Origin: Candidatus Gottesmanbacteria bacterium
Lineage (GTDB): Bacteria > Patescibacteriota > Microgenomatia > UBA10105 > UBA927
Direction of reading: 5' to 3'
Length of the DNA stretch: 64,000 nt
Assembly (NCBI GenBank): GCA_023245355.1
Contig: JAHFKN010000001.1
Location: forward strand, 203,528 to 267,527
The position numbers and the translations under genes were made by a program. Below the pieces are notes generated by a model. The model worked only from the letters and a program-made list of their open reading frames with translations, was not told the DNA's origin and did not search any database. Of this stretch, positions 8,984 to 31,596 are shown in pieces (the first letter of the stretch is position 1; each line of letters opens with the position of its first letter).

Positions 8984-9373
8984 TCAGATGCTTTCTTGAT
9001 TGTGTGAAGCCAATTTAGAATCCTTAACGTTCCCAGTATTTAACGTACCTTTGGGCTCAATAAGAACTATGTGGACTTCTTCTTTTGCCTCGGGCTTGTG
9101 CTCGATTGGGTGGGGAATAATCACAAATTCACCCTCGTTTACTTGAACATCTTTATCTCGGAAATGAATTGTTAGTTGTCCCTTGATTACAAGAAATAAC
9201 TCATCTTCATTGTCGTGATGGTGCCAAACAAACTCTCCCTTGAGCTTTACAACTTGAACCTTATGGTTATTTAATTCACCGACGATCTTTGGATTCCAAT
9301 ACTCACTAAACAACGAGAGTTTATCTGCAATATTTACAACTTTCACGGAATAAGAGGTATTTTTCATAATCAT
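8984..9373 (-). CDS. Cupin-domain protein
   Basis: Cupin motifs: HHHDNEDELFLVIKG, then ...GEFVIIPHPIEH. Confidence 0.65.
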   Translation of the reverse strand: MIMKNTSYSVKVVNIADKLSLFSEYWNPKIVGELNNHKVQVVKLKGEFVWHHHDNEDELFLVIKGQLTIHFRDKDVQVNEGEFVIIPHPIEHKPEAKEEVHIVLIEPKGTLNTGNVKDSKLASHNQESI

Positions 9374-9439
9374 GAATATTGTAACAATTTTCTACATGAT
9401 TTGCTAGACTATATCAGTTGTAAGCAGTAACATAAGAAC

Positions 9440-10285: not shown

Positions 10286-10305
10286 GCATCTTGAACACGT
10301 TAAAT

Positions 10306-10333
10306 TTGACAAAAGACGAATTTTTTGTATAAT
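10306..10333 (+). promoter_or_regulatory. Sigma-70-type promoter with extended -10
   Basis: TTGACA at 10306-10311, a 16-nt spacer, then TGTATAAT with TATAAT at 10328-10333. Confidence 0.55.
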
Positions 10334-10339
10334 ATACTC

Positions 10340-10500
10340 AATACTTAGCTGTGAAGGTCTTTGGCAAGCTGGAGCTGAGCATTCTAAAAGCGGTCTGAAC
10401 TTAAGCGATTATCGATAGTACAGACAATTAGGGTGGAACCACGGGTTAAAAGAAAACTCGTCCCTTTGTATAAGAAATTATATGAAGTGACGAGTTTTTT
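10340..10500 (+). promoter_or_regulatory. T-box riboswitch leader 1 (transcription-terminating type)
   Basis: Core AATTAGGGTGGAACCACGG at ~10426-10444. A terminator follows: cucguc...gacgag stem then UUUUUUU at 10494-10500. Stem-I-like ggcaagctggagc carries a GGC (Gly) triplet. Confidence 0.6.
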
Positions 10501-10671
10501 TGTTACTTCATATAACGACAAGTTAATAGTAGCGATGAAAGGCCTGGCAACCTGGAGCTACACCAACAGTTAAAGAGGGTAAGTTTACTGGAAATCATGA
10601 CTTACCAATTAGGGTGGAACCGCGACCATATATGGCCGTCCCTAAGCGAAAGCTTATGGAGGCATATATGG
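10501..10671 (+). promoter_or_regulatory. T-box riboswitch leader 2 (candidate translational, SD-sequestering type)
   Basis: Second core AATTAGGGTGGAACCGCGACC at 10607-10627. ccatatatggcc (10626-10637) can pair with ggcatatatgg (10661-10671), burying SD GGAGG (10658-10662) and ATG 10668. No U-run follows. Confidence 0.5.
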
Positions 10672-11921
10672 ATACACAACCATACTACAAAACAATAATT
10701 GAACAGATTGACAAGCATACTGCTTATAGGCAGGAATGCCTTAATCTGATCGCTTCAGAAAATGTCTGCAGTCCTGCTGTGGCCAAGATTCTATCTTCTG
10801 ATTTAACCAATCGTTACTCTGTTGGACGTCCTCGCGCGAGATGGTTCCCAGGATTACAGTACTACGACAAAGTTGAGGAAATTGCGGAAAAGCTTTCACA
10901 AAAACTATTCCATGTCCAGTATGCCAATGTTCAAGCCCCTACGGGAATGGTGGCTAATATGGCCGCTTATTTAGCGGTGCTTAAACCCAACGACCTGGTG
11001 TTAGCTCTGCGCGTTAAACACGGAGGACACTATAGTCATGTTGCCGAGAATATATTCAAAAGCTTCAACATCCGCGTTGAGGATCTTCCCTTTGATGAAC
11101 AGTCATATTCTGTAGACATTGAGAGAGCCATTGATCTCATTAGGGTTAAGAAACCACAAATGATTATTCTTGGAACTTCGGAGTTTTTATTCCCAGCACC
11201 CATTAGAGAATTAAGGCAGGTGTGCAACAAAACAAACACTAAAATTCTTTATGATGCCTCACATGTCTCAGGACTCGTGGCTGGACAAACTTTCCAAAAT
11301 CCAATGGCAGAAGGAGCAGATATTCTCACAATGAGCACCAATAAGACATTGGCTGCCCCAAGTCATGGACTTGTGGCCTGCAACGACACAGTCAAGTATC
11401 AGGCTGACTTTGAACATGCAATTACCCCTCTCCTAACGTCAAATCACCATGCGCACCATGTCGCTGCTTTGGCCATGACCTTGGCAGAGTTTGATGTTTT
11501 CGGACACGAATACGCTGCTCAAATTATTATGAATGCAAAAACTTTGGCACGAGCCCTTTATAACCAAGGGGTAAAGGTTTTATGCCCTGAAAAGGATTTT
11601 ACCGAGAGTCACACTGTTTTGATTGATACTGTGACCTCATCAAAAGAAGCAGTGCAGAAGTTGGCTGAGGCAAACATTATGACAAATTCGTTTCAACTTC
11701 CCTGGAATGAAGATGGGTTTGAAAGTGGAATCCGAATAGGAACAAACGAAATAACCAGACTTGGAATGAAAGAGTCAGAGATGAATGTTGTTGCCGATTT
11801 AATAGCAGCTGTTTTATTGAAAAAACAATCGATCGCTGAGATTAAACGGAAAGCACAAAATCTTAGATTGTCTTATCAGACAGTTAATTATTGTTTTAAT
11901 CCAGCTCAATTAAGTAGCTGA
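10668..11921 (+). CDS. glyA: Serine hydroxymethyltransferase-like PLP enzyme
   Basis: LIASENVCSPAV matches SHMT LIASENF; HGGHYSHV matches GGHLTHG; STNKTL sits at the PLP-lysine position. Start set at Met 10668 behind GGAGG. Confidence 0.7.
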   Translation: MDTQPYYKTIIEQIDKHTAYRQECLNLIASENVCSPAVAKILSSDLTNRYSVGRPRARWFPGLQYYDKVEEIAEKLSQKLFHVQYANVQAPTGMVANMAAYLAVLKPNDLVLALRVKHGGHYSHVAENIFKSFNIRVEDLPFDEQSYSVDIERAIDLIRVKKPQMIILGTSEFLFPAPIRELRQVCNKTNTKILYDASHVSGLVAGQTFQNPMAEGADILTMSTNKTLAAPSHGLVACNDTVKYQADFEHAITPLLTSNHHAHHVAALAMTLAEFDVFGHEYAAQIIMNAKTLARALYNQGVKVLCPEKDFTESHTVLIDTVTSSKEAVQKLAEANIMTNSFQLPWNEDGFESGIRIGTNEITRLGMKESEMNVVADLIAAVLLKKQSIAEIKRKAQNLRLSYQTVNYCFNPAQLSS

Positions 11922-11935
11922 AGGAGGTAAATTAT

Positions 11936-12478
11936 ATGGCAAAACCAGAACAGTCAGAATCAATGCAAGAATTCGAACAACGCTGTATTGAGACAGTGAA
12001 GCGAATGCGTGCTCAGGCTCACAAGGTGTTAGATAGGGCTGGAACAGTTCATAAAGCTCAACCGCTCAAGAAGTGGGAAAAGATTGTTTATCCCCTTCTG
12101 GGAATGAAGCCCGAAGGTTATATGGAGTTTGATTCGGCCAACGATCCACGATTAGCGATCGTCACAAGGGCGGCTGCTGGAGGACTGGTAACCCCAAGAG
12201 TTAGAGTTCTGGCACCATCTGAAAGAAACGAAATGTCAGCTATGGAAGTTCGACTGTCCGGCAAACAGCCAGAGACTGGAAGAAATGTCGACATCATGAG
12301 TGTTGACCTCCCAGAGGGATCAAATAGTGCAGTACAAACAAAAGTAATTTTGTGGACCGCACCCTTACCAGGGAGGATTCCATTTTATGAAGTCATGGAT
12401 TCAAACTTTGCCGAAGTAGTAGACTTAACAATAAGAACTCTGGAACACATTAATAAATGTTTATCTGAAAGGAAATAA
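11936..12478 (+). CDS. Hypothetical protein between glyA and glyQS
   Basis: ORF with a GAAGGAGG ribosome-binding site, sitting in the same operon. No motif recognised. Confidence 0.45.
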   Translation: MAKPEQSESMQEFEQRCIETVKRMRAQAHKVLDRAGTVHKAQPLKKWEKIVYPLLGMKPEGYMEFDSANDPRLAIVTRAAAGGLVTPRVRVLAPSERNEMSAMEVRLSGKQPETGRNVDIMSVDLPEGSNSAVQTKVILWTAPLPGRIPFYEVMDSNFAEVVDLTIRTLEHINKCLSERK

Positions 12479-12480
12479 AT

Positions 12481-13860
12481 ATGGACACAACAATGCAAAA
12501 AATCGTCAGTTTATGTAAAAGAAAAGGGTTTGTTTATCCAAACTCTGAAATTTACGGAGGAATTCAGGGGTTCTATGATTACGGACCACTAGGAGCCGAA
12601 CTACAAAATAACATCAAGCGGGTTTGGTGGAAATGGATGACCCAACTCCATGATGATGTCTATCCAATTAACGGAGCAATCATCACCCATCCGAAGGTTT
12701 GGGAAGCATCAGGACACGTTCAGAACTTCACCGATCCGTTAGTCGACTGCAAAAAATGTCATAAACGTTTCCGAGCCGATCACTTGGTTGAGGAATTCCT
12801 CACAGAGGATGCTGGAACTGCTAGTCAAAATCGCTTGGATCAGATAGCAGCAGAACTTAAATCAAGACACATTGTTTGCCCTGAGTGTGGAGGAGAGTTT
12901 ACCGAGGTCCGCAAATTCAATCTTATGGTTGAAACTTCCCTTGGGGTTGTTGAAGGCGAAAAGATGACGGCTTATCTCAAGGGGGAGGCATGCCAAACGA
13001 TCTACCTGGATTACCAGAATGTGCTTAATTCGACTAATGCCAAAATTCCTTTTGGGATATGTCAAATCGGGAAGGCTTTCAGAAATGAAATCACCCCAGG
13101 ACATTTTTTATTTCGTCAGCGTGAGTTTGAACAGTGGGATCTCCAATGGTTTACCAATCCCAAAGAAATGGATAAATGGTATGAGTACTGGAAAGCAGAA
13201 AGAATGATGTGGTATCAAAGCCTAGTGAATCATAAAGATCGTCTGCGCTTTAGACAACACGATCAAAACGAACTTGCTCATTACGCGAAAAAGGCATTCG
13301 ATATCGAGTATGAGACTCCATTTGGATGGAAAGAATGGGAAGGAATCCACTGGCGTGGAGACTGGGATTTGTCCCGTCATGGGCAATACAGTGGGAATGA
13401 TTTTACCTATACTGATCAAAAAACAGGTGATAAATTTATTCCTTGGATTGTCGAAACATCAGGAGGAGTTGATCGCACTTTCCTTTTCCTGCTCATTGAT
13501 GCTTACGATGAAGAGGTCGTAGATGGGAAAACGAGAGTGGTTCTACATTTACGACCAGACCTAGCTCCGTACAAAGTAGCGGTCTTCCCGTTGGTATCCA
13601 ACAAAGAAGATATTGTCGAAAAGGCAAAGTCAATCTACAGAGCATTAAAACCTAGCATTGCAACCATTTGGGACGATATCGGGAATGTTGGAAAGAGATA
13701 TCGAAGACAAGATGAAGTTGGTACTCCGTGGTGTGTCACGGTTGATTACCAAACACTTCAGGACGATACGATAACAGTTCGAGATCGAGACACTATGAAA
13801 CAAGAAAGAGTGAAGGTATTAGATCTGGAATACTTTTTTGCCGAGAAGTTGAAAATTTAA
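12481..13860 (+). CDS. glyQS: Glycine--tRNA ligase (dimeric class II GlyRS)
   Basis: Class II motif 2 QIGKAFRNEITPGHFLFRQREFEQWDLQWF. N-terminal GFVYPNSEIYGG...YDYGPLG is typical of alpha2 GlyRS. Confidence 0.85.
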   Translation: MDTTMQKIVSLCKRKGFVYPNSEIYGGIQGFYDYGPLGAELQNNIKRVWWKWMTQLHDDVYPINGAIITHPKVWEASGHVQNFTDPLVDCKKCHKRFRADHLVEEFLTEDAGTASQNRLDQIAAELKSRHIVCPECGGEFTEVRKFNLMVETSLGVVEGEKMTAYLKGEACQTIYLDYQNVLNSTNAKIPFGICQIGKAFRNEITPGHFLFRQREFEQWDLQWFTNPKEMDKWYEYWKAERMMWYQSLVNHKDRLRFRQHDQNELAHYAKKAFDIEYETPFGWKEWEGIHWRGDWDLSRHGQYSGNDFTYTDQKTGDKFIPWIVETSGGVDRTFLFLLIDAYDEEVVDGKTRVVLHLRPDLAPYKVAVFPLVSNKEDIVEKAKSIYRALKPSIATIWDDIGNVGKRYRRQDEVGTPWCVTVDYQTLQDDTITVRDRDTMKQERVKVLDLEYFFAEKLKI

Positions 13861-13867
13861 AACAGGA

Positions 13868-14254
13868 TTACTCATCGTACTGGCTTAGAAGTGCTTCCAA
13901 GATGGGGTGGATTTGTCTGTCGACCATCAACCTCCCCTTTTCGGTATCCTTAATGACACCCGTTTCTTTTGCTATCTGCAGAAGTCGTGAGATTTCCTCA
14001 TCTCTCAGTGGTTTACCTTCGTCATCAACTCCAACAACCGCTTTATACGCAGCTTCATCAAATGTTGCTGGTTCAGGTGCAAATGGGGCTAGATAGAGAA
14101 TGCCTGTTAGAACTCTCTCTCTGCCTGCATTTCCAAATAGTTGTCTATCTTTTTCTGTGAGCAATGAATCTGCAATCAATTCAAATTGAGCCCTAGTAGT
14201 ATCAGGTTTTAAAAGTTGTCCAAGTTTTGGTAATGGTTGTTCGGCTTTTTCCAT
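13868..14254 (-). CDS. Hypothetical protein
   Basis: 128-aa ORF on the minus strand, reading toward the gly genes. No motif recognised. Confidence 0.35.
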   Translation of the reverse strand: MEKAEQPLPKLGQLLKPDTTRAQFELIADSLLTEKDRQLFGNAGRERVLTGILYLAPFAPEPATFDEAAYKAVVGVDDEGKPLRDEEISRLLQIAKETGVIKDTEKGRLMVDRQIHPILEALLSQYDE

Positions 14255-14380
14255 ATAAATAATCCTTAAAAGATATAAAGATTATAACATTATATGGCCT
14301 GAAGTTCAAAAAATAACACAAAAAGACATAAACATTATTGAAGTCTCCATTACCCCTTGATTACTATTAAACCATTAAGA

Positions 14381-14461
14381 AGTTAGCCTAACGAAACTAT
14401 CGGGGCTGTGGCTTCTGAATATACGCAAGATGCGTGTGTTTAGAAGTTACAGCCTTTTTTT
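14381..14461 (+). promoter_or_regulatory. Conserved box, long hairpin and U-run; copy 2
   Basis: agttagcctaacgaaactatcggggct at 14381-14407. Hairpin ggctgtggcttct (14404-14416) pairs with agaagttacagcc (14442-14454), then ttttttt at 14455-14461. Confidence 0.45.
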
Positions 14462-15902: not shown

Positions 15903-17069
15903 ATGCCATCAGCAACAGGAATAAAAGGAACAGGAAATTTAGGAGTCTTACGTAAGTACGACGTCGCCGACGTGGTCTCGCTACTCGACGTTAATCGTTA
16001 TCCTCTTTTGGCCATCTTGACCAATGCAGGAAAAGATCCAGCAAGTGGTGAAGGTAAAGCCTTGAAAAAGAGTGAAGCGGTAGACCCGGAGTTTAAGTGG
16101 TATGAAGATGACTTTGGTCGTCGCCAATTAACCGGTTCAGCAACTGTCGATCCCGATGGAGGGAACTTGACTGTCACCGGTCAATCACAGTACTTACAAG
16201 TTGGAGATGTAATTTTGGCTGCTGCCCAGAAATGGGTCTTCCAAGTTACTGCTATTGTCGATGCCAACACCGTCACGGTTGGTCCCGAATTAGGAGGGGC
16301 AACCGGCGCAGCTGCTTCGGCAGTTGGAGATGTCTGGCTTATCGGAAACGCTAATGAAGAGGGTGCAGGATTAAGAGATATAAAGTCAACGATCATCCAA
16401 GAAATATCGAACTACTGCCAAATCTTCAGAACGCCAGTCGGTATTACTGAAACATCCAAAAACACTAAGGGATTAACCAAGGAAAACGACTTTGATTTTC
16501 AAAGGCGAAAGAAAGGTATCGAGCACTATGTCGATATCGAAAGATCGTTCTTATTTGGCAAGAAAGGCATCATCACTACAGGGACTCATCCAAAACGATT
16601 CACTGCTGGTATCTTGTCTAGGATTGCAACCTACGCTACAGCGAGTGTTGATACAGAATCAGAATTTGATGCTTGGTTGGAGAGCTTATTTGCACACGGA
16701 AATACAGAAAAATATTTGCTTGCATCTGCGGCCGTGGTTTCCATGGTCAACGGTTGGGCAAAGGGAAAGCTACAGATCGTAAGTCCAACAAAGGCTTATG
16801 GACTGCGAATCGTAACCTACGATTCTCCACACGGAACGCTACACATGATCAAACATCCATTATTAACTGGAACGACATACGGAAATTATGCTGTCGGTTT
16901 GGACATGGAATGTTTGACCTACCGCTACTTGAGCAATCGAGATACCAAGCTTTTGACTAACCGTCAGGCCAATGGTGAAGATAGTCAAGTCGATGAATAT
17001 CTGACCGAATGCGGTCTGCAAATGGAGCAAGAGTCACGCCATGCCATTATGAGCATCGGTGCGCTCTAA
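15903..17069 (+). CDS. Major capsid protein (putative)
   Basis: 388 aa, follows the scaffold, strong GGGAGGTGA ribosome-binding site, a terminator-like hairpin pair downstream, and Gly/Thr/Ala-rich beta-type composition. Confidence 0.5.
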   Translation: MPSATGIKGTGNLGVLRKYDVADVVSLLDVNRYPLLAILTNAGKDPASGEGKALKKSEAVDPEFKWYEDDFGRRQLTGSATVDPDGGNLTVTGQSQYLQVGDVILAAAQKWVFQVTAIVDANTVTVGPELGGATGAAASAVGDVWLIGNANEEGAGLRDIKSTIIQEISNYCQIFRTPVGITETSKNTKGLTKENDFDFQRRKKGIEHYVDIERSFLFGKKGIITTGTHPKRFTAGILSRIATYATASVDTESEFDAWLESLFAHGNTEKYLLASAAVVSMVNGWAKGKLQIVSPTKAYGLRIVTYDSPHGTLHMIKHPLLTGTTYGNYAVGLDMECLTYRYLSNRDTKLLTNRQANGEDSQVDEYLTECGLQMEQESRHAIMSIGAL

Positions 17070-17116: not shown

Positions 17117-17190
17117 TCGCTACACGCTTTCTTACTCAGTGTAGCCGTTTAAGCCAAGGGTGAGCGTTATCACCCTTGCAAACTTTATTA
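17117..17190 (+). terminator. Candidate intrinsic terminator or attenuator after the capsid gene
   Basis: Two perfect hairpins: gctacac...gtgtagc (17119-17145) and caagggtga...tcacccttg (17155-17178), followed by U-rich caaacuuuauua. Confidence 0.4.
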
Positions 17191-17211
17191 AAGATAGGAG
17201 GTGAAAAAACA

Positions 17212-17784
17212 ATGACAGAAACAGTTGAAAAAACATTAGAAGAAATGTCCATGACCGAACTTTGGGGTGAAGCCAAACGTCTCGGTGTTTCTAAAGACGG
17301 TAAAAAAGATGAGTTAATTGCTCGGCTCCGCGAAGCCCAAGAAAATGGCGAGACGACGAAACCTGCAGAAACTCTCAAAGAGGTGGTGTATATCGCCAAA
17401 TACCATGAACTGAAGTTAGTGATGAACCCCTCTTATATCAAAGAGGTGGCTGGTCGCGTTATCACTGTAGCCGGTCGTTCAATTCAATTCCATGAGGGAA
17501 TCTATCGAACCAGTGATCCGGAAGAAATCGAATTTTTAGATAACCACAAGAACTTTGGCAACGTCTATCGCAAGGTAGATCGTAACGATCTGAAGTCAGG
17601 TAAACCAATGGAGCAAGTTTATAAAGAGAAATTCCAGACTTTGGAAGATCGCGAAAAGGCAATCACTGCTCGTGAGGAAGCTCTCAAGAAAAAGGAGATG
17701 TCGCTTAAAGGTTTTGAGGAAGGCGCTCCTAAACAACCGGCAGTAACTGGGGTTCGAAGTTCGGCAGACCAACCGAAGTTTTAA
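17212..17784 (+). CDS. SAP-domain protein (virion-associated?)
   Basis: N-terminal MTELWGEAKRLGVSKDGKKDELIARLRE fits the SAP helix-linker-helix pattern. Start set at Met 17212 behind AGGAGGTGA. Confidence 0.45.
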   Translation: MTETVEKTLEEMSMTELWGEAKRLGVSKDGKKDELIARLREAQENGETTKPAETLKEVVYIAKYHELKLVMNPSYIKEVAGRVITVAGRSIQFHEGIYRTSDPEEIEFLDNHKNFGNVYRKVDRNDLKSGKPMEQVYKEKFQTLEDREKAITAREEALKKKEMSLKGFEEGAPKQPAVTGVRSSADQPKF

Positions 17785-17796: not shown

Positions 17797-18087
17797 ATGG
17801 AAAGCAGACCTAAATTTACAACGGCTAATGTTACATTGACCAACGCCGATACTTGGTATCCCCTGCCGGACATTGCAGTCGGTGAAGGATGTGAAGTGGT
17901 CATTAAATCCAAAGCTGGGAATACCGGAGCGATTAAGGTTGCCCATGACGATACTGCCAGTAAAACATCACCGTTTTTACTGGATAACTCTGGTGATAGC
18001 GTGAGCTTGAGAGTTAAAGGTACAACTCAAATCGTCCTGGCTTCTAGTGTTGCTGGACAAATTGTGGAGGTTATTGCTGAACAATAA
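17797..18087 (+). CDS. Hypothetical small beta-rich virion protein
   Basis: ORF in the structural block. No motif recognised. Confidence 0.35.
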   Translation: MESRPKFTTANVTLTNADTWYPLPDIAVGEGCEVVIKSKAGNTGAIKVAHDDTASKTSPFLLDNSGDSVSLRVKGTTQIVLASSVAGQIVEVIAEQ

Positions 18088-18089
18088 AT

Positions 18090-18677
18090 ATGGCCAAATT
18101 TAAACCATCATTAGTAAACATACGAAGAATGTTCTCGAAGATGAAAATCATCGTCAATACCGATGACGGTGAGGAAGACTATGACACAACCTTGTACCCG
18201 AATGGTTTCACCGCTAACCAAATCTCAATTGGTAATGACAATACCGGCAGTAATGATGCAGGGCTTAGGTTCTTAAGACCACTTCTACCCAACAACGTCA
18301 AAATCACCAAAGCGATTCTGCGAGTGAAGTCGGCTGTCAATTCCACTAAACGGCCAATTTTTGTGATCAAAGGTATCAAACAAACCAGCACGTTGAGCTT
18401 TGATTCCACCCATCGACCATCTCAGCAACCCAAAACGACTGCTACCGTGGCTTGGGTCCCCGGAGCCGATTGGGTTATTAATACCTGGTATGAAAGCCCG
18501 GATATTAAATCGGTTATCCAAGAAATTATTGATCAAACGGAATTCACCAATAAAGCAATTGGCTTGACGATTGAAGACAATGCTAGTCCAGCCAATAACT
18601 ACGAAAACATCTGGGACTTTAACAGTGGAGCTGCCAACGCGGCTCAGCTGGTATTAACACTAGAACCAGATTTGTAA
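18090..18677 (+). CDS. Stand-alone copy of the repeat domain that recurs twice in the amidase
   Basis: DGEEDYDTTLYPNGFTANQISIGNDNTGSNDAGLRF and ESPDIKSVIQEIIDQTEF align to both repeats inside 18956..20611. Confidence 0.5.
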   Translation: MAKFKPSLVNIRRMFSKMKIIVNTDDGEEDYDTTLYPNGFTANQISIGNDNTGSNDAGLRFLRPLLPNNVKITKAILRVKSAVNSTKRPIFVIKGIKQTSTLSFDSTHRPSQQPKTTATVAWVPGADWVINTWYESPDIKSVIQEIIDQTEFTNKAIGLTIEDNASPANNYENIWDFNSGAANAAQLVLTLEPDL

Positions 18678-18681
18678 GGAG

Positions 18682-19005
18682 GTGAAAACGATGCAAACAA
18701 ACGATGCAACACTATTACAAACAATTTTAGAAGCCATAGCTGCCAGTCCTGACAAAGTGATAGTTGAAAGAACAGTCGATGAAATGGGGGTATTACTGAA
18801 AGTCAAAGTCGATGAAAAAGATGCCGGAGCGGTGATTGGTAAAGAAGGTGCCACTATAGCGGCGATCCGAAAATTGATGGGCGTTTTCGGAAGGAAAAAT
18901 AATGCTCGGATAAACATCAAGTTAGATGTTCCGCCCAGAAAGAAATTAAAAACGTATGAAAAACCAAGTATTGAAGATCAAAACCACGATACAGGAAAAC
19001 TCTGA
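18682..19005 (+). CDS. KH-domain RNA-binding protein (KhpA/YlqC-like)
   Basis: GAVIGKEGATIAAIRKLM is the KH GxxG loop. Size and layout match KhpA. Its 3' end overlaps the track start of the next ORF by 50 nt. Confidence 0.5.
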   Translation: MKTMQTNDATLLQTILEAIAASPDKVIVERTVDEMGVLLKVKVDEKDAGAVIGKEGATIAAIRKLMGVFGRKNNARINIKLDVPPRKKLKTYEKPSIEDQNHDTGKL

Positions 19006-20611
19006 TGATGGCAGAGAGGTGGGCGCTTCGATTTGGTACGCAGATGGTAATGCTGGAAAGGTAATCACCTTCGGCAATTTTGGTGATTCGATCCAGGTAG
19101 CAGCCTTCCGTTTTCGTGGGGTTAATATTCCCAAGTTTGCCAAAGTTTTATTTGCCAGACTCAGACTAAAAACGGCTTCAACTGACGATACTGACTTTCC
19201 GGTGTTATTGAAAATCAGGGGAATCAAAGAAGCTGACCCTCAACCATTCAAACAAACAACCAGACCGTCCACCCGAACAGCGACGAGCAATGGCATCGAC
19301 TGGGATATTATAAAAAAGTGGAACGCCAATGAATGGGTTCAAACTCCTAATTTGAAACTAATCATTGACGAATTGGTCCAACAAAGTGACTGGAAACCTG
19401 GCAACGCCATGGCATTTACTATTGGAGATGATGGAAGCATCGCCGGGAATGCCAAAACTTGTTGGGATTCGAGTAAGGGTAAAAGCTATGAAGCCGAACT
19501 TGAAGTGTATTACATTACCCCAGGTCTTCATGAAGAAATATCAATTATCAGTTTATCCGGTAACGACCGTGATGGCGAAGAAGATTACGATACTACCTGG
19601 TTTCCCAGTGGCTATGCCAGTAATCGGATCAGCATTGGTAATGACAGCACCGGAAATTGTGATGCTGGACTAATATTTAGTCCCGTCAACATTCCTAAAG
19701 GCGCTGAAATTCTTTCGGCAAGACTCCTTCTCACTAGCGAAGCGCAATGGAATGCCATGCTGAATCTTTTGATAAAAGGATTTGCTGAAGATAATGCGCC
19801 AGTATTTGCATCTAATGGTTCTAACCGCCCCTCAACTCGGACTAAGACAGCTACCCAAGTTCAATGGACCCTGGGATTTGGCCAAGCTGGTGTTTTAGTG
19901 GGTGAACATTGGGCCGCTCAAAGTGTCTACGAATCACCCGAGTTAAAAGAAATCATTCAGGAAATTCTTGATCGACCAGGTTGGGTAAAAAATAGATTGG
20001 GGATGGTCATTGAAGATTATGACTCCCAAGCCGGTGCAGTTAAGAACATTTTTGACTCCAATCAAGATAGTGGTAAATACGGCGCGAAATTGGTCATTGC
20101 CTGGACTTGTGAGCGACGAGTCACAACCAGAGGCAAAGACACTAAAGCTTACGATAAAGCGAACTATCCGGAATATATTATCGTTCACCACTCCGCAACT
20201 CCCAGGGATAATACCCATTTTGCCACCATCAAAAAGTCTCACATTAGCTATGGTTGGGACGACATTGGCTACCACAAATGGATTGCGGGCGGCCTTGATG
20301 GTCTGGGGACTCTAATAGCCGGTAGACAAGAAAACAAAATCGGCTCACATAACGACAGTAACAAAATGAACTATCGCTCGATTGGTATTTGTGTTTGCGG
20401 AAGCTTCCACTCTACCGGCGGTAACGAACAACCCTCAACCGAACAGTTAGCCACTTTACAAGCACTTCTTGACGATATCCGGATGAAGCGAGGTATTCCC
20501 AAAGAGCGGGTCATAGGACATGGTGAGACGCCAGAATCGACCACTGATTGCCCTGGTGATCATTTACTCTCGTATATCAAAAATTATCGAAAAACAGGGT
20601 CATTGACCTAA
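18956..20611 (+). CDS. N-acetylmuramoyl-L-alanine amidase (Amidase_2/PGRP) with two N-terminal repeat domains
   Basis: C-terminus YIIVHHSATP...GYH...SIGICVCG...GHGE...TDCPG matches the T7-lysozyme/PGRP zinc amidase. The N-terminus holds two ~190-aa repeats; the start may be Met ~19041. Confidence 0.7.
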   Translation: MKNQVLKIKTTIQENSDDGREVGASIWYADGNAGKVITFGNFGDSIQVAAFRFRGVNIPKFAKVLFARLRLKTASTDDTDFPVLLKIRGIKEADPQPFKQTTRPSTRTATSNGIDWDIIKKWNANEWVQTPNLKLIIDELVQQSDWKPGNAMAFTIGDDGSIAGNAKTCWDSSKGKSYEAELEVYYITPGLHEEISIISLSGNDRDGEEDYDTTWFPSGYASNRISIGNDSTGNCDAGLIFSPVNIPKGAEILSARLLLTSEAQWNAMLNLLIKGFAEDNAPVFASNGSNRPSTRTKTATQVQWTLGFGQAGVLVGEHWAAQSVYESPELKEIIQEILDRPGWVKNRLGMVIEDYDSQAGAVKNIFDSNQDSGKYGAKLVIAWTCERRVTTRGKDTKAYDKANYPEYIIVHHSATPRDNTHFATIKKSHISYGWDDIGYHKWIAGGLDGLGTLIAGRQENKIGSHNDSNKMNYRSIGICVCGSFHSTGGNEQPSTEQLATLQALLDDIRMKRGIPKERVIGHGETPESTTDCPGDHLLSYIKNYRKTGSLT

Positions 20612-20617
20612 AAATAT

Positions 20618-21262
20618 ATGCAATTACAAGAATTTAGACAAGATCTCGATGCCAGAATGTCCGCAGCCAAAATAAGCGGATTTTGGAAGCAACCGGATAA
20701 AGATCGATGGCTTAATAAAGGAATTGTGCGAGCTTGTAATTACGCCCGGTGGAAATTCCTCAGTAAACACGCTTCTCAACTCATTGAGAAAAATCCTGAT
20801 GGAACTTTAAAAGAAAATTACTTCCTACCGTTTGATTTCAAACCGGGTGGATTAATAACAATCAAAGTTGGGGGAACTCCCCACCACAAAGTCAGTGAAG
20901 ACGAATACACCCAACAGTCCTACTCCTACGAGCGAGTAGTGGCCATTATTGGCGATGAGTATCACCTCAATCTAAGCGAACTTACTGGTATTACCGAAGG
21001 CACAATTATCGATATTTATTACAAACGGCGTCCGGTAAGAATGGTTGAAGATGACGACGAGCCAATTACTCCTGAAGAAATGGACGAACCGGTCGTCAAG
21101 TTAGCACTTTCCGTTTGTTTAACCAAAACACCTGGAAAACAAGCTGATGCTCAAAAAGAAGTGGTGGAAGCCCATACCATCCTGCAACAAATTAAAGATA
21201 GGGAGGATGAGGAACCGACCAGTGTCTACAAAGGACAAGCTGGCAGTTCCCGATGGGAATAA
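20618..21262 (+). CDS. Hypothetical virion or tail protein
   Basis: ORF in the structural block. Acidic C-terminus. Confidence 0.35.
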   Translation: MQLQEFRQDLDARMSAAKISGFWKQPDKDRWLNKGIVRACNYARWKFLSKHASQLIEKNPDGTLKENYFLPFDFKPGGLITIKVGGTPHHKVSEDEYTQQSYSYERVVAIIGDEYHLNLSELTGITEGTIIDIYYKRRPVRMVEDDDEPITPEEMDEPVVKLALSVCLTKTPGKQADAQKEVVEAHTILQQIKDREDEEPTSVYKGQAGSSRWE

Positions 21263-22730: not shown

Positions 22731-24032
22731 ATGCTGACTGACTTAATACAAAAAGTGTTTGGCAATAAGGAGATCACAGATACTCCTTTTCCTGTCGTGC
22801 CGGTCCACACCCATAACAGCATTGATTCACCAGCGTTGGCCCCTGGTTCCGTCAGTACGGTCAATATTAAATCTGATGCGGTCGATGAAAGTAAACTGAT
22901 GGATTTATCGGTGACTGAGGAAAAATTGGCTGAGGCAGCTGTCGCTACTCAAAAGATCAAAGACGATGCGATTACTGCTGCTAAAGTTTGGAAAGGTGGA
23001 TCGGTTATTACCCTCTCGGCTCAAATTGCGGAAGCGATTATTCTAACTGCCCACATTCAAGACTTGGCCGTCAAATGGGCAAAAATCGGTAATTTGGAAG
23101 TTGGTAATAGCAAGATCATGGATGCAGCGATCAGTAATGCCAAAATTCAGGACTTATCAGTTACCAACGGTAAAATCGGGCTTCTTGAGGTAGGTAACTC
23201 CCGGATCATGGATGCGGCTATTAGTACCGCAAAAATCCAAGACCTAGCAGTTGAGTGGGCGCAAATTGCAACGCTTGCTGTCGGCAACTCAAAAATAATG
23301 AATGCTGCTATCAGTACGGCTAAGATCCAGAATTTGGCAGTGACTGACGCTGAAGTAAACGATTTGAATGCGGCCAAAATATCGGCGGGACTCATGATGG
23401 CTGACAGAATTTGGGGTGGGTCTGGGTATTTTGATTACATTCAGGTTCGGGAGTGTGGGACCCAAGCGGTAAATGTTGCCGGGAATATCAATAAATCCGG
23501 AACTTGTAACTTTGCGATTCCTCACCCATTCAAGCCTGGTAAGCAGTTAGTTTATACCGGAATTGAATCAGCCGAGGTAATGCTGGTCGAGCGCGGTAGT
23601 AGCCAACTTCAGAATGGTCAAAAGCAGATTGATTTCTCTGACCACTATAAAGCCGTCAGCGACCCAAGAAAAACAACGGCTTATCTTACACCTCGAGAAG
23701 ATTGTAAAGGCTTGTTGCTTCAAGAAACGACTGGAGATCACATCACGGTAAAAGAAATGGGTAACGGTAAATCAAACGCCAAATTTGACTACATTATTTT
23801 TACAGTCCGCAAGGGCTTCTATGGCGTTGATTTTGAACCGGAAGATCTCTCACTTTTCCAAAACGATGGGGAAGATGAGGAATCATTCAAACAGCGCTAT
23901 CACGACCATCGAATTAAGTTGATTCAGAAAAAAGGTGGTCTGGATGTTGATGCAAAAGTCGCTGAATTTCACCAAACATGGATCTCAACTCAAGGAAATA
24001 AAAGGGTTAATCAAAAGGAGGTGAACACGTAA
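22731..24032 (+). CDS. Tail fibre or spike protein with tandem ~30-aa repeats
   Basis: Four copies of ...VGNSKIMDAAISxAKIQDLxV... between residues ~80-210, as expected for a receptor-binding protein. Confidence 0.45.
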   Translation: MLTDLIQKVFGNKEITDTPFPVVPVHTHNSIDSPALAPGSVSTVNIKSDAVDESKLMDLSVTEEKLAEAAVATQKIKDDAITAAKVWKGGSVITLSAQIAEAIILTAHIQDLAVKWAKIGNLEVGNSKIMDAAISNAKIQDLSVTNGKIGLLEVGNSRIMDAAISTAKIQDLAVEWAQIATLAVGNSKIMNAAISTAKIQNLAVTDAEVNDLNAAKISAGLMMADRIWGGSGYFDYIQVRECGTQAVNVAGNINKSGTCNFAIPHPFKPGKQLVYTGIESAEVMLVERGSSQLQNGQKQIDFSDHYKAVSDPRKTTAYLTPREDCKGLLLQETTGDHITVKEMGNGKSNAKFDYIIFTVRKGFYGVDFEPEDLSLFQNDGEDEESFKQRYHDHRIKLIQKKGGLDVDAKVAEFHQTWISTQGNKRVNQKEVNT

Positions 24033-25096
24033 TGGCAACAAAACAATTAGGCGGGTGGTATTGGCAACCTGAGCAGAATAAAGCTCTGCGTTGGTGGGGT
24101 ACTGATTCTGCTGGCAAAGATATTTATACCGCAGGTGATGAACCAAGTAAGCCACAAACTGTATCTAATTTGAGTACAGGACTAAGTACGGTTGGATCCG
24201 GAAATGTTTTGGGGTTTGACCTCAACACTCTTAATTCTAAATTCCAAGACACCTACGGTCAGGTCCAAGGGCTGTCGACTGATCTGGAAGATTATTCAAC
24301 GCGGCGATATGACGAGGAATACAGCAAGGCAGGCTTGGGTAAAACTAAAGATGAAATTGCGGCATTAGACGCTAGTATTGCCAGTGAGAAAAACGTCCGA
24401 GATGAATCGGTTAGTAAGGTCAGAAAAAACCCTGGGTACTCTGCGGCAACCATTACCGGAGAAACCGGTGAAGTCCAAAAACTAGCCGACTCGAAAATTG
24501 GCAATTTAATTGAAGAACGAAATGCAAAAGCACAAACCTACAATGCTACCTTAGGTGAAATCACCCAAAGAGTAGCTACTGAAACTCAAGGCAAACAAAG
24601 CAAACTGAATAGCTTACGTTCTGATCTACAGCTTATAAGCGGATTAGTAGATTCCTATAACAAAACCAGATCAACCGAACTTTCCAGTCAAACCGATGAA
24701 ACACATTGGGAAAAAGAATTCGAACTAAAACTCTATAGTGCCCAAACCGATCGTATGAAAACCGGCGACGGGAGTGGTACGTATGCCAAACAACAGGTCA
24801 AGGATGCCTTTGGTAATGTGACTGGTTTCTTTGATCCAGTATCCGGACAAACAACGCCTTATCAATCAGATTCTCAAAAGAATCAGACAACAACAGTAAA
24901 TGAAGGTGAGCTTAGAAATGAAATTAGAGCAGCCTGGAAAACTGGCTTGAACGCTGACCAACTAAAGACAAATCTGGCAAACGTGACGACTGATAAAGGT
25001 AAGAACGCCTCACAAGTGATTGACGAGGAGTGGCAGTTAAAAAATCAACCAGGAATCATGGGCTTTTTACGAAGGCTCTTTACCCCTGGAGTTTAG
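24032..25096 (+). CDS. Hypothetical tail protein
   Basis: Start overlaps the previous stop (TAATGG). Ser/Thr/Gln-rich. Confidence 0.35.
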   Translation: MATKQLGGWYWQPEQNKALRWWGTDSAGKDIYTAGDEPSKPQTVSNLSTGLSTVGSGNVLGFDLNTLNSKFQDTYGQVQGLSTDLEDYSTRRYDEEYSKAGLGKTKDEIAALDASIASEKNVRDESVSKVRKNPGYSAATITGETGEVQKLADSKIGNLIEERNAKAQTYNATLGEITQRVATETQGKQSKLNSLRSDLQLISGLVDSYNKTRSTELSSQTDETHWEKEFELKLYSAQTDRMKTGDGSGTYAKQQVKDAFGNVTGFFDPVSGQTTPYQSDSQKNQTTTVNEGELRNEIRAAWKTGLNADQLKTNLANVTTDKGKNASQVIDEEWQLKNQPGIMGFLRRLFTPGV

Positions 25097-25098
25097 AA

Positions 25099-28000
25099 AT
25101 GATTATGGACAACTTTTTAGAACAACTAAAGAAAAACATCACCTCGTCGTTTGCCAATACCAAACAGTCAGTGGGTGATATTTTTGGTAAGGCTCAAACA
25201 AGTCTGACTAATCTGGTGCGTGGTGGTCAACAAAAAGTTGATGAGGTCATTAAACCATTGCAGTACGATATCGCAATTCCTGGCCCAACAAGTGGAAGCT
25301 ACAAACCGTTTAAGAATTTATATTTGGAGACGGCAGCCCAAGCGCTAGGAGTTGGGGCTCGGGACACTGATGTCTTGGAGAGGTTGCCTAGTGCAACTTT
25401 TGGCGCACTTAAGGGTGCCGGTAACGGACTGGGTGAAGCGTTGTCATTTGGTTGGTGGAAACCGGAAATAAAATATGCCGATGATATAGAAAAACAAGCC
25501 GGTGACATGACTGAGGTTGAGTTTAATGTTCTGGGAACTATTGGAACATTTTTGGTCGGTGGCGAGTTGGTCCAAGGAGCCTTACGAGGTGTGCCTCTTC
25601 TGGCGCGAGTAGCGACTGTCGCCCCTAGAACTTTCAATGTGTTATCGACTGGACTGACATTTGCCGGACTTACTCAAATTCAAAAGGACGAAGCACAAAA
25701 GAACGCTGCACAGCGAGCAAAAGATTTTGTGGGTGATTTTGCTCTCGGTGGAGCCTTCTCGATTGCCGGAATGAAAACATCGTTCCTGAAGTCTTCGGCG
25801 ATTATTGGTCCAGCCACTTATGTCACTTCACTCTTAAAAGGAGAGTCAAACGGTGATGCGCTTAAAGATACAACAGCCATGATGGGACTCCACTCCCTTA
25901 ATTTCGCAGTGGCTAAGTTTTTACCTAATGGATCAGAAATAGAAAACCGAATAGAAAAAGCGGCCAGTGAACAACTCAAAATAACTAAAGCAGAGGCAAT
26001 GGAATACTTGGGCATTAGCGATAAAGCGACGGCAGAGGAAATGAAACAAGCTTGGAAAAATAAGGTGGTTGACATCACCAAGCGATTCCCGGCTCAGGCC
26101 AATCAAACACCACAAGAAATGGGAGTATTTAATCAAGCTTGGAATACAGCCAATAGAGCCTATGAATTCTTAGCAAAGGTGAGTAATCCGGAAGGATATA
26201 CCGGCAAGTCTTTTGCTCAAGAGTTTCAAGATTTATATTACCAACTCTGGAAAGATGTCCCAGATAAACGCTCGGCCATTGTCAAAGCCGTTCGCAGCTT
26301 ACCGGCCGGTCTATCTGTTCGGGCGACACTAAATGATGGCCAAAGAAACGAAATTGTTACTACCCTAGGTGGTGAAGAAGCAAAGACGAGACTGGGAAAA
26401 GTGGCTGAATTAACTGATGCAGATTTAGTGTCAGTGGCCATGGAGAATAAAATCACGGTTACCCCTTCTAAAACAACAGTACCGGAAACAATACAACTTC
26501 CTGCGACAGAACAAACTGCTGAGGCTTCAGCTCAACTAAAAACTAATTTAAGTCTTCAAGAACAAAAAGCTGTTAAAGCAGCCGAGATCCGAGATAAATA
26601 TATAACACCTGAAGAAAAAGAACTGGCTGATGCCGAAAAGATTCCTAGCATCGGTGACATTTTACAATCACAAACCTTTCAAGATCGATTGCAAGGCAAA
26701 GTTACAGCACCCACTACTCCACGAGCAGATCAGTTGAGAGAACTACCTCCAGGTAAACCGCCTCGCCCGCCACAAGAAGTGTCCCTCGATGGTGCACCAC
26801 CATCGCCAGAAGGCAGTGCTTTGGATGAGATCGATAAAATGGTTGGCAAAATCTCAACGGCTAAATCAATTCTGGGGAATATTAAAAACGCTATCGAAAC
26901 ATTTCCTCGAATGTTTACTGACAGGTTTGCACCTATAAAGAATTTTGAGGATCAAATAACCAAACTCCAAGGGCAACCAATCAATATCGATTCCAGTCCA
27001 TATGTGGCAGCCAGAATGTATGCTGGCCGATTTGGAATTGTTGAGGGAAACTTCAAAGATTTATATAACATCCTACAACCGGTGCGAAAGCTTCGTGCTG
27101 ACTTTACCCGATTTGTTTTATCTGAACGTGCCATAGAGCGTGCAGAGCGAGGATTTGATAACCCTAATGGGGTTACAAAAGAAACGGCAGAACAAGCTCT
27201 GGTGGAATTGAAAGATAAAGTCGGTGATAAAGCATTCAAAGCATTCGAGCAGGTTGGCCAGGGAATTCAAAACTGGTCCATTAAATCAATACTCCAACCC
27301 ATGAAGGATGCCGGAATCTTAGGGAAAGAAGCCTTCACCTCAATTGTCGAGAACAACAAACGATGGATGCCGTTCCATGTTCTCGAGTATATGCCTTCAG
27401 TGGAGCAAGCCGACCAGATGGCAGTTGGTAGTGAAACTTTCTCGGTAAGTAAACAGGGGGTGATCAAATCTCTAGAAGGAACGGAAAAAATCATTCGTGA
27501 TCCGTTTATGTCGATTATTGATAATCTAACGAAATCGGTCAGCTTAGTGGAGCGCAATAAGGTGGCCCAAAAACTGATTGACCTGCGAAATAGCCATCCT
27601 GATGCTGCCAAAGAGTTTATAAAGTTTTTACCGGATGGTTTACGACCGCCAGCAGAGTGGGATGCAATTAGCGTCTTTATTGACGGCAAAGTGACGAAAT
27701 GGGCAGTACCCAAAGATCTCTCGGAAGCGATGCATGCTTTATCCTCAGCCGAAACAGGACTGATGGGTAAAATGATTTTAGCTTCGTCAAAAGCCTTCAA
27801 AGCCGGAACTACGTCACTCTATTTCCCGTTTACTCTTTCAAATGCCATCCGGGATTACCAAACTGCCTCAATTGTTTCTAAGTGGGGATTTAATCCAGCC
27901 AACTGGCTATCAGGATTCAAAGACGGACTAAAGGCCGCCTTTAAGTTTGACTCCAAAGCATATGACGAATTCATGACCAACAAAGGTGGTTATGGAGGAT

Positions 28001-29385
28001 ATATCGAATCATCAAAAGGGCTCGCTGTCGCTTCTGAACAACTTTTCACCCCTGAGTGGATGAATCGAGCAAAAATTGTCGTCAATCCCTTTCAGCTCAT
28101 CAGTACCTTTTCAGAAGCAATAGAACTGGCTCCCCGATTGGGGGTTTATAAAAAAGGAATTGCTCAAGGAGCTACTCGACTTGAAGCAGCTTACGAAGCA
28201 CGCAATGTGACGGTTGATTTTGCAAAGGCTGGAATTGAAGGTCGACTGATTAATATGTGGATTCCCTTTGTGAATGCTCGTTGGCAAGGACTTCTGACCA
28301 TTGGCAAAGTGATGAAGGAAAATCCATTTAGAACGACGGTGCGAGCTTTGGCCTTGACGGTCCTGCCTGGTGTAGCTACTTATTTTTATAACGTCATGAA
28401 CCATGAAGATCTTTGGGACGATATCCCCCAATGGGCCAAAGATACATATTTTATTGTGATTGTAGGTGAAGGCCAAGATAGCCAAGGAAATCGGGTGCCG
28501 AAAGTAGTTCAAATCCCTAAAGGTGATATGGGGACTATATTTTTCAACCCGTTAATGTATGCCTTGGAATACGTGCGAAAACAGGAGCCAACTAACCTCT
28601 TTAAGTTAGGACTCGAGTGGATGAGCCAATTGTCACCGGTCTCGTTTACCAGAGATGGAGAATTATCAGCTCAGTCTTTCCTTGGGAGCGCACTACCTCC
28701 AGCGTTAAAAGTGCCATTGGAGCTGGCGACAAACACTAATCTTTTCACCGGATTCCCAATTGTGCCTCAGCGCTTAGAGAAAGTGACACCAACTGAGCAA
28801 TATGATGAGAAAACACCACAAATAGCAGTTACGGCCGGTCGAGCTTTGGGCATCAGTCCGATGAAGCTGACCCATGCAATTTCAGGATTAGCCGGAAGTT
28901 TTTCTCGTCAAGTAATGAACCCCGCCGACATTATCAATTTAACGACACAGCGCTTTTATCGGCTTCAGGGTGGGCAAAAACAACAGGCAGCCTGGGATAT
29001 TAAGTATGACGCTGAAGTGGGCTACAACACCACGAGGCTGCAGATGAAACGGCTGATCGAGCAGGGTCAGCTTCAGCAAGCCCAACAGATGGCGCTCAAA
29101 TGGAATCAGGAGGCCGAGAAACTCATTTCCCAGATAGTTCCACTCCTAATGAAAGATGACCCCAAGGAAGCGGCTTCATTTCAAAGTAGCATCACTTTTG
29201 ATGCTGCAGATTTGCAGCGACTCCTGAAGACAACGCTTCCTGGTGGTGTACCACAAAATGCTGGAACTGATCAAACACTAATTCCCCTTCAGCCTGGACT
29301 TAATACTAATTCGACCATGGGACAACTATTCCAGGGTGGTCAACAAAATAGTGGCGACGCTATAAGGAGGTTAATTTACAAATGA
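25099..29385 (+). CDS. Large virion protein (~1,430 aa): internal core, ejection or tape-measure-like
   Basis: Giant ORF in the tail block with long helical segments and a Pro-rich linker PPGKPPRPPQEV. Start set at Met 25099 after the previous stop. Confidence 0.4.
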   Translation: MIMDNFLEQLKKNITSSFANTKQSVGDIFGKAQTSLTNLVRGGQQKVDEVIKPLQYDIAIPGPTSGSYKPFKNLYLETAAQALGVGARDTDVLERLPSATFGALKGAGNGLGEALSFGWWKPEIKYADDIEKQAGDMTEVEFNVLGTIGTFLVGGELVQGALRGVPLLARVATVAPRTFNVLSTGLTFAGLTQIQKDEAQKNAAQRAKDFVGDFALGGAFSIAGMKTSFLKSSAIIGPATYVTSLLKGESNGDALKDTTAMMGLHSLNFAVAKFLPNGSEIENRIEKAASEQLKITKAEAMEYLGISDKATAEEMKQAWKNKVVDITKRFPAQANQTPQEMGVFNQAWNTANRAYEFLAKVSNPEGYTGKSFAQEFQDLYYQLWKDVPDKRSAIVKAVRSLPAGLSVRATLNDGQRNEIVTTLGGEEAKTRLGKVAELTDADLVSVAMENKITVTPSKTTVPETIQLPATEQTAEASAQLKTNLSLQEQKAVKAAEIRDKYITPEEKELADAEKIPSIGDILQSQTFQDRLQGKVTAPTTPRADQLRELPPGKPPRPPQEVSLDGAPPSPEGSALDEIDKMVGKISTAKSILGNIKNAIETFPRMFTDRFAPIKNFEDQITKLQGQPINIDSSPYVAARMYAGRFGIVEGNFKDLYNILQPVRKLRADFTRFVLSERAIERAERGFDNPNGVTKETAEQALVELKDKVGDKAFKAFEQVGQGIQNWSIKSILQPMKDAGILGKEAFTSIVENNKRWMPFHVLEYMPSVEQADQMAVGSETFSVSKQGVIKSLEGTEKIIRDPFMSIIDNLTKSVSLVERNKVAQKLIDLRNSHPDAAKEFIKFLPDGLRPPAEWDAISVFIDGKVTKWAVPKDLSEAMHALSSAETGLMGKMILASSKAFKAGTTSLYFPFTLSNAIRDYQTASIVSKWGFNPANWLSGFKDGLKAAFKFDSKAYDEFMTNKGGYGGYIESSKGLAVASEQLFTPEWMNRAKIVVNPFQLISTFSEAIELAPRLGVYKKGIAQGATRLEAAYEARNVTVDFAKAGIEGRLINMWIPFVNARWQGLLTIGKVMKENPFRTTVRALALTVLPGVATYFYNVMNHEDLWDDIPQWAKDTYFIVIVGEGQDSQGNRVPKVVQIPKGDMGTIFFNPLMYALEYVRKQEPTNLFKLGLEWMSQLSPVSFTRDGELSAQSFLGSALPPALKVPLELATNTNLFTGFPIVPQRLEKVTPTEQYDEKTPQIAVTAGRALGISPMKLTHAISGLAGSFSRQVMNPADIINLTTQRFYRLQGGQKQQAAWDIKYDAEVGYNTTRLQMKRLIEQGQLQQAQQMALKWNQEAEKLISQIVPLLMKDDPKEAASFQSSITFDAADLQRLLKTTLPGGVPQNAGTDQTLIPLQPGLNTNSTMGQLFQGGQQNSGDAIRRLIYK

Positions 29386-31570: not shown

Positions 31571-31596
31571 AAAAACAGACCCCATTCGGGGTCTTT
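31571..31596 (+). terminator. Intrinsic terminator at the composition boundary
   Basis: cagaccccattcggggtc hairpin followed by ttttttt. Confidence 0.5.

Follow-up and report, generated by a model that had tools for sequence, protein, structure and literature searches.

A CBM96/DNRLRE-like module encoded three times in a Patescibacteria prophage, once alone and twice beside a peptidoglycan amidase

Modular endolysins, such as phi29 gp15 (LysM), the staphylococcal CHAP-amidase-SH3b enzymes and KZ144 (N-terminal PG_binding_1), join a catalytic domain through a flexible linker to repeated targeting modules. T7 lysozyme (gp3.5), which has the Amidase_2 fold, the His-His-Cys zinc ligands and the catalytic tyrosine also seen in PGRPs, consists of a single domain of 151 amino acids (aa). 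CBM96, which is the same as the DNRLRE domain, is a type-B polysaccharide-binding module that itself shows a secondary structural resemblance to the BMP and activin prodomains (PMC9971899); its solved members 7VBO (TM6-N4 of the alginate lyase Dp0100) and 8WAB (a chondroitin-sulfate-binding CBM) are beta-sandwiches of about 160-190 residues with one short helix. Here we analyze a stretch of 64,000 nucleotides (the window) from a Candidatus Gottesmanbacteria genome assembly (GCA_023245355.1, contig JAHFKN010000001.1, positions 203,528 to 267,527 of the forward strand), in which a module with the same predicted fold is encoded three times within a prophage, once in a small protein, A, and twice in a larger protein, B, where the two copies form a putative targeting region of 390 aa that B adds N-terminally to an amidase domain of the T7 lysozyme type. 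The features of the two genes, with the computed isoelectric points (pI) of the module copies, are the following:

18090-18677, + strand: protein A, an open reading frame of 195 aa (pI 5.9)
18090-18119, + strand: short N-terminal leader peptide of A, MAKFKPSLVN
18120-18674, + strand: CBM96/DNRLRE-like beta-sandwich module of A, one copy (residues 11-195)
18956-20611, + strand: protein B, 551 aa, comprising two CBM96/DNRLRE-like modules, a linker and an Amidase_2 domain
18956-19525, + strand: B1, first module copy of B (residues 1-190; pI 8.6), matched by the domain hidden Markov model (HMM) and a beta-sandwich in the model of B
19526-20119, + strand: B2, second module copy of B (residues 191-388; pI 4.7), matched by the domain HMM
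20120-20161, + strand: flexible linker of B (residues 389-402), with confidence (predicted local distance difference test, pLDDT) below 50 at residues 390-401 in the model of B
20162-20560, + strand: Amidase_2 catalytic domain of B (residues 403-535), a T7 lysozyme/PGRP-type N-acetylmuramoyl-L-alanine amidase

The three copies of the repeat unit, which is about 185 aa long, are clearly homologous, with pairwise BLASTP E-values across A, B1 and B2 ranging from 1e-19 to 7e-36. A aligns over nearly its full length both with residues 190-381 of B (36-38% identity, E 3e-33 to 7e-36) and with residues 9-191 (32% identity, E 1e-23 to 1e-25), and is thus closest to B2 among the modules of B; B1 and B2 share 30% identity (E 2e-19). 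Searching the six-frame translation of the 64-kb window with the domain HMM yielded exactly three copies. An earlier note on this DNA, made by reading the sequence without database searches, had proposed one domain present three times, once alone and twice in B, and these results bear it out. Of the two motifs on which that proposal was based, E(S/T)P-x-(I/L)K-x-(I/V)I-x-E-(I/L) is found in all three copies and forms a helix in the model of A (residues 140-147); the other, DG-EDYDTT...ISIGND-TG-DAGL-F, occurs literally in A and B2 but is divergent in B1 (DDGREVGAS...VITFGN...AAFRF). In the domain alignment A1, B2 is distinguished by an extra beta-hairpin insertion of about 9 residues, TLGFGQAGVLVG. 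An orthologue of A, P0033, contains an insertion of about 70 residues within the module, which suggests that a surface loop tolerates a whole extra segment.

The duplication does not appear to be recent, given that a DNA repeat search over positions 18000-20700 produced only chance 15-16-mers and nothing repeated at the nucleotide level. Among the 48-50 orthologues collected for each copy, the mean identity is 0.61-0.68 within a copy type, compared to 0.31-0.35 between types, which implies that the triplication is old and that each copy has evolved under its own constraint.

The identity of the module emerges primarily from structure prediction. From an alignment of 29 copies, AlphaFold2 modelled A with a pLDDT of 92.9 and a predicted template modelling score (pTM) of 0.88, as a beta-sandwich whose one short helix coincides with the E(S/T)P..K..IQE motif. 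The top structural matches of this model in a Foldseek search were 8wab (E 1.5e-7, TM-score 0.60-0.65) and 7vbo (E 4.4e-5), that is, the beta-sandwich fold of the solved CBM96/DNRLRE members is the fold modelled for the phage module, at 15-20% sequence identity to these structures. The closest viral folds in BFVD belong to phage CBM96 proteins, a phage pectate lyase and several tail/structural proteins. At the sequence level, the NCBIfam model DNRLRE_dom (NF033679) aligned with A over profile positions 9-164 of 164 (156 positions) with an E-value of 6.3e-6, and matched 10 of the 29 diverse domain copies at E<=0.01 (best 1.7e-7); Pfam CBM96 (PF24517) matched one of the 29, with E 1.2e-4. The module very probably belongs to the CBM96/DNRLRE superfamily, in which, by the curated thresholds, it constitutes a distinct, divergent family rather than a member sensu stricto. 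In common with CBM96/DNRLRE, modules of this family accompany enzymes as accessory modules and are arranged in tandem in surface proteins. Unlike the described members, they possess an N-terminal strand of their own with a DDGxE motif and a distinctive helix motif, TP(D/N)L..I(I/V)QE(I/L)V, are paired with a peptidoglycan amidase, not a polysaccharide lyase, and occur in a phage of Patescibacteria.

These results bear on several statements of the earlier note. The suggestion that the repeat is a glycan- or cell-wall-binding module agrees with the modelled fold, which is that of polysaccharide-binding CBM96/DNRLRE domains, and the remark that it is not SH3, LysM, PG_binding or CW_binding was correct; by contrast, the domain can no longer be called unknown, being a divergent branch of a known superfamily and part of a family with over 18,000 cluster representatives. 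The assignment to a known binding family is confident by structure and falls just short by sequence (26.3 bits for A, with a curated DNRLRE_dom cut-off of 34).

Several observations weigh against the assignment and against glycan binding by the modules. None of the HMMs matched a module copy of the window at its curated threshold: DNRLRE_dom scored 26.3 bits with A and 16.9 bits with B, so that membership by threshold is not reached, and Pfam CBM96 gave no match to the window copies at E<=0.1. Searches of PDB sequences with profiles for the phage family (A1) and for the wider family (A3) did not reach 8wab or 7vbo. Furthermore, the alginate site of TM6-N4 is a shallow basic groove lined by Lys10, Lys22, Lys25, Lys27, Lys31, Arg36 and Tyr159 (PMC9971899); such a Lys/Arg groove is not evident in the sequences of the phage modules, the N-terminal third of which is acidic or neutral (DDGEEDYDTT...). 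Judging from this acidic or neutral N-terminal part and from the spread of pI values among the copies, the ligand of the phage modules is probably not alginate. Across all Pfam and PHROGs models, no family matched A or the repeat region of B. The sole nominally significant PDB match of the profiles, the designed repeat protein Pizza6, was rejected as spurious (per-domain E >4).

The same PDB searches (A1 and A3) touched the BMP9 prodomain at E 0.2-0.6, and this speaks for a different explanation, namely, that the module binds no carbohydrate at all and is instead a protein-binding or latency domain that holds the amidase inactive until release, or else a capsid-binding cement domain. The arm of the structurally similar TGF-beta/BMP prodomain shields its partner, BMP prodomains are the only weak sequence-profile matches in PDB, and the full-length model of B, with a pTM of 0.82, suggests that its parts are compactly arranged. 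Nevertheless, we consider this explanation highly improbable: DNRLRE is the only family whose HMM matches the module by sequence, CBM96 shares the prodomain similarity and is a proven polysaccharide binder (PMC9971899), the wider family resides in giant, adhesin-like secreted proteins (PilY1-family, PKD/Ig-containing, T9SS-tailed), and the linker between B2 and the amidase is disordered.

The wider family proved to be large. A profile search of 1.84 billion cluster representatives retrieved 18,739 proteins at E<=1e-3, of which 14,084 had E<=1e-10; among the best 150 matches, almost all are proteins of 600-5,900 aa with 3-8 copies of the domain. The copies follow a recurring pattern, DD(A/V/G)xE ... 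G(L/F)RF..(V/I).IP.gA.I..A.L ... TP(D/N)L..(I/V)(I/V)QE(I/L)V.r.gW, and accompany VWA, PKD/Ig, metallophosphoesterase and type IX secretion system (T9SS) sorting domains. Giant secreted carriers, found among P0104-P0251, include a type IV pilus protein of the PilC/PilY family with a VWA domain, from Motiliproteus. Pfam has no model that covers the repeat in the ten giant repeat proteins examined, and DNRLRE_dom touches six of these ten, below threshold. Judging by these sequences, the domain is common in secreted adhesin-like proteins and effectively unnamed, that is, a family of more than 18,000 representatives, kin to CBM96/DNRLRE, escapes Pfam. Deposited phage genomes (50,697) yielded no tblastn match to A, no cultured relative is known, and a consensus-like member of the wider family produced one match in them, a hypothetical protein of an archaeal virus; a further protein search with profile A3 added nothing and gained no names.

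The fusion partner in B is readily identified as a zinc amidase of the T7 lysozyme/PGRP type, as the earlier reading had it. Pfam PF01510 matches B over profile positions 3-131 of 131 with 67.9 bits (cut-off 26) and E 1.4e-18, the domain also matches PHROG amidase/endolysin families, and its best matches among PDB sequences are T7 lysozyme (E ~1e-10) and insect PGRPs. The segment IIVHHSAT of B aligns with IFVHCSAT of T7 lysozyme and GYH with GYH, which places the first zinc-ligand histidine and the catalytic tyrosine; the C-terminal zinc ligands, His and Cys (GHGE...TDCPG), were assigned by reading the motif, so that the His-His-Cys triad and the Tyr are all retained. Five residues, H411, Y439, H522, T530 and C532, are invariant in 34 orthologues. 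Given this alignment and this invariance, the catalytic site of B looks intact. At the position of T7 Lys128, B has a threonine, which we take to be the arrangement in catalytic PGRPs. The AlphaFold2 model of the whole of B has a pLDDT of 87.8. The architecture with two CBM modules and an amidase recurs in about 50 orthologues from Patescibacteria metagenome-assembled genomes (MAGs) and phage contigs, the former including MAGs of Woesebacteria, Daviesbacteria, Nomurabacteria and Moranbacteria.

Positions 1 to ~31.5 kb of the window constitute a tailed-phage genome with a GC content of ~0.43, and from ~32 kb on, cellular genes follow at a GC content of ~0.51. The source labels of near-identical copies of B are Woesebacteria and 'Patescibacteria group', and ~1 Mb contigs of Daviesbacteria carry orthologues of A; the phage region is an SU10-like podophage integrated in a genome of the candidate phyla radiation (CPR; Patescibacteria). 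The other features of the window and one of a relative, in order (strand where assigned), are:

814-2361: large terminase
2679-3203, + strand: ECF-type sigma factor (Sigma70_r2, r4_2), just 3' of the large terminase gene
7104-8978: portal
8984-9373, - strand: cupin, cellular-type cargo
9440-10285: GNAT acetyltransferase, cellular-type cargo
10614-11921: serine hydroxymethyltransferase, cellular-type cargo
12481-13860: class II aminoacyl-tRNA-synthetase-like protein, cellular-type cargo
14406-14452: terminator-like hairpin with a 20-bp stem
15903-17069: SU10-type major capsid protein (MCP)
17176-17784, + strand: SAP-domain protein, 202 aa, directly after the MCP gene; in all relatives
17797-18087, + strand: beta-rich protein of 96 aa, after the SAP-domain gene; in all relatives
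18682-19005, + strand: KH-domain (KhpA-like) protein, 107 aa (Pfam KH_KhpA-B 57.4 bits, cut-off 32.1)
20618-21262: SU10-type adaptor
22731-24032: tail-fibre protein
25030-29385: LPD38 internal-type protein, 1,451 aa
29382-30485, + strand: second putative wall hydrolase, with a Peptidase_C39_2-like N-terminus (Pfam) and a long coiled-coil C-terminus
30469-30741, + strand: small membrane protein with 2 transmembrane segments (hydrophobicity scan)
30747-30995, + strand: small membrane protein with a C-terminal transmembrane segment (hydrophobicity scan)
30997-31272, - strand: AbrB/antitoxin-like gene
31577-31594: bidirectional terminator-like hairpin
31647-32591: Na/Ca exchanger
34531-34604: tRNA-Thr(CGT)
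5494-6779 of L007: counterpart of the second hydrolase locus

The gene order MCP, SAP, 96/98-aa protein, slot A (the position of the gene for A), KH, B, adaptor and nozzle, with two small genes between KH and B in some cases, is conserved, as read in the independent contigs L001-L006. The 96-aa protein may be the counterpart of SU10's Ig-like gp10, to judge from its place in this order. The KH gene overlaps the start of B by 50 nt, and L001, L003 and L005 have it in the same place; its product puts an RNA-binding fold amid phage structural and lysin genes, which is puzzling. A programmed frameshift that would join KH to B through this overlap was considered and set aside; in L003 and L005, two other genes lie between the KH gene and B. 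A scan of 14-32 kb for promoters and terminators produced nothing above the shuffled expectation, and only the hairpins at 14406-14452 and 31577-31594 are convincing. With no convincing terminator within 14.45-31.5 kb, this region appears to be one late operon in which A, KH and B are co-transcribed with the structural genes.

The cellular-type cargo (8984-14452) lies between the portal and the head genes and ends at the hairpin 14406-14452; at the same place, L001 encodes MarR, a MacB-type ABC transporter, a prenyltransferase and GT2, and L003 an aminotransferase, a methyltransferase, DsbA and CRP. The junction of prophage and host lies at ~31.3-34.6 kb, where there is a hairpin and where the GC content climbs from 0.43 to 0.51; the window does not reach the prophage's left end. 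On the host side, a low-GC island at 42483-45073 (- strand; GC 0.365 at 44-46 kb) encodes, by eye, an acyltransferase-type membrane protein, a glycosyltransferase and a SAM methyltransferase, which possibly serve host surface-glycan synthesis.

The reading that we favor, with about even confidence, is that B is an endolysin, A a virion adhesin and the modules glycan binders. As an enzyme, B is free-standing, and its two binding-type modules, disordered linker and single catalytic domain make up an endolysin architecture as far as the fold of the modules can be taken to imply wall binding; it is this combination that makes a role at the end of infection most likely. Like other modular endolysins, B combines a catalytic domain, a flexible linker and repeated targeting modules, and like the KZ144-type enzymes, it carries them N-terminally; unlike described endolysins, its binding module is CBM96/DNRLRE-like, its gene lies among head and neck genes, 10 kb away from the holin-like genes, and the gene two places upstream encodes a paralogue of the module as a separate protein. 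Four features speak against an endolysin. The neighbors of B are the KH and adaptor genes rather than a holin or another membrane-lesion gene; its location between capsid-side genes and the adaptor is typical of structural proteins; the second hydrolase is encoded directly 5' of the only holin-like genes and could be the endolysin instead; and the N-terminal placement of the modules is the opposite of that in most endolysins of monoderm hosts.

An alternative has to be weighed in which B is a virion-associated peptidoglycan hydrolase for entry and the C39/M23-coiled-coil protein is the true endolysin; A and B would then decorate the head-tail junction or the capsid, with the modules serving adsorption and the amidase wearing the wall thin beneath the short tail. 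A short-tailed phage usually needs a virion lysin to enter a host with a peptidoglycan wall, phi29 gp13 being an example. B is encoded within the structural block, between the MCP (15903-17069) and adaptor (20618-21262) genes, and always directly 5' of the adaptor gene in the series MCP, SAP, 96-aa protein, A, KH, B, adaptor, nozzle and fibre. SU10 has, between its capsid and adaptor genes, a gene for an Ig-like protein, putatively a minor capsid or head-fibre-like protein (PMC9509320). In relatives, A-type modules are joined both to DUF2793, a virion anchor, and to B. The two small membrane genes at the right end of the prophage are the only ones in the late operon, and the hydrolase that adjoins them has an exchangeable catalytic domain, with an M23-like head replacing the C39_2-like part on the same coiled-coil C-terminal domain in IMG/VR relatives; this is the usual signature of a lysis cassette. 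Against this stands the composition of B itself: virion lysins usually lack separate binding domains and are built into larger structural proteins, and no attachment domain is recognisable in B. The C39/M23 protein, encoded after the giant LPD38 protein and having a long helical C-terminus, resembles ejection proteins whose head degrades the wall, such as SU10 gp20 and T7 gp16, and if the 14.4-31.5 kb block is one operon, the position of a gene in it says little about timing. We regard the virion lysin, which the earlier note had suggested, as a doubtful alternative and rate an endolysin role for B somewhat above it; it is A, not B, for which there is evidence of virion display.

That evidence comes from the variability of slot A. 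All products of this slot start with MAKF(K/R/N/E)(P/S), followed by a variable remainder: the CBM96-like module in the window and most relatives; DUF2793 (77 bits, cut-off 27) and then the module in P0039, P0040 and P0042; and an unrelated domain of 192 aa in L005. DUF2793 is the conserved N-terminus of tail-fibre and receptor-binding proteins found in virions, where it is thought to attach the fibre to the particle while the variable C-terminal parts contact the host (PMC5026251; bioRxiv 10.1101/150227). In P0039, P0040 and P0042, the module thus takes the variable, host-binding place of DUF2793 fibres such as RcGTA Rcc00171, DMS3 gp49 and JBD26 gp59; unlike these, A of the window lacks DUF2793 and has only its 10-residue leader, and its gene adjoins the capsid genes instead of lying downstream of the central tail fibre gene. 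The conserved leader, the exchangeable distal domain and the gene position fit an adhesin displayed on the virion better than they fit a lysin subunit in the cytoplasm, and we conclude that A is most likely such an adhesin, presumably for the same host glycan that B would bind or for a related one.

The competing assignment for A, suggested by analogy, is a free extra binding subunit that would assemble with B into a hetero-oligomeric lysin. Its models are the two-gene lysin PlyC (PlyCB-lil-PlyCA) of a streptococcal phage and endolysins that add free binding domains, such as Lys170 and CTP1L. The succession of binding-module gene, small unrelated gene and catalytic gene in A-KH-B mirrors plyCB-lil-plyCA, A is a paralogue of B's own modules, nearest to B2, and in L003 and L005 the N-terminus of B is extended, by way of KSLxY repeats, with one more A-type copy (P0103, 866 aa, three copies), indicating that modules have been shuffled between the two genes. 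However, A is related to PlyCB in neither sequence nor fold, and B, unlike its PlyC counterpart, has binding modules of its own. A simple 'Rosetta stone' interpretation of P0103 as a fusion of A and B is weakened by L003, where a stand-alone A coexists with the three-copy lysin; the same coexistence, the unrelated domain in slot A of L005 and the DUF2793 fusions, which suit a virion fibre rather than a cytoplasmic lysin subunit, render the subunit assignment unlikely.

Should both proteins be displayed on the virion, A and B might jointly form a 'bind-and-cut' device at the capsid or neck that recognises a CPR-specific wall or S-layer glycan, with A anchored by its MAKFxP leader (by DUF2793 in relatives) and with a module family new to lysins and receptor-binding proteins. 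We consider this rather unlikely. Under the favored reading, with B as endolysin and A as adhesin, the two modules of B, one basic and one acidic, would dock on an envelope polysaccharide of the Patescibacteria host, and would concentrate and orient the C-terminal zinc amidase on the peptidoglycan sacculus; late in infection, the amidase would cleave the MurNAc-L-Ala bond, with the small membrane proteins at the end of the late operon supplying the membrane lesion. A, probably located on the particle, would mediate reversible adsorption to the same surface.

A literature search, incomplete in scope, found no CBM96/DNRLRE-like module described as the targeting domain of a phage peptidoglycan hydrolase, and a search on lysins of Patescibacteria phages returned nothing relevant to this module family. 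The design, binding modules combined with a wall hydrolase, is ordinary; it is not a new kind of system but appears to be realised here with an unreported module family, and, at minimum, this adds one more type of binding domain to the modular repertoire of phage lysins. There is hardly any experimental knowledge of Patescibacteria phages and of the envelopes of their hosts, and the conserved two-module lysin together with its stand-alone paralogue point to a specific envelope polymer recognised by these phages. Fluorescent A or B(1-388) could possibly serve as affinity probes to label or capture uncultivated Patescibacteria cells, and B as a selective lytic enzyme; if A and B do bind and cut together on the virion, they would provide the first molecular handle, probe and lytic enzyme alike, specific for CPR envelopes.

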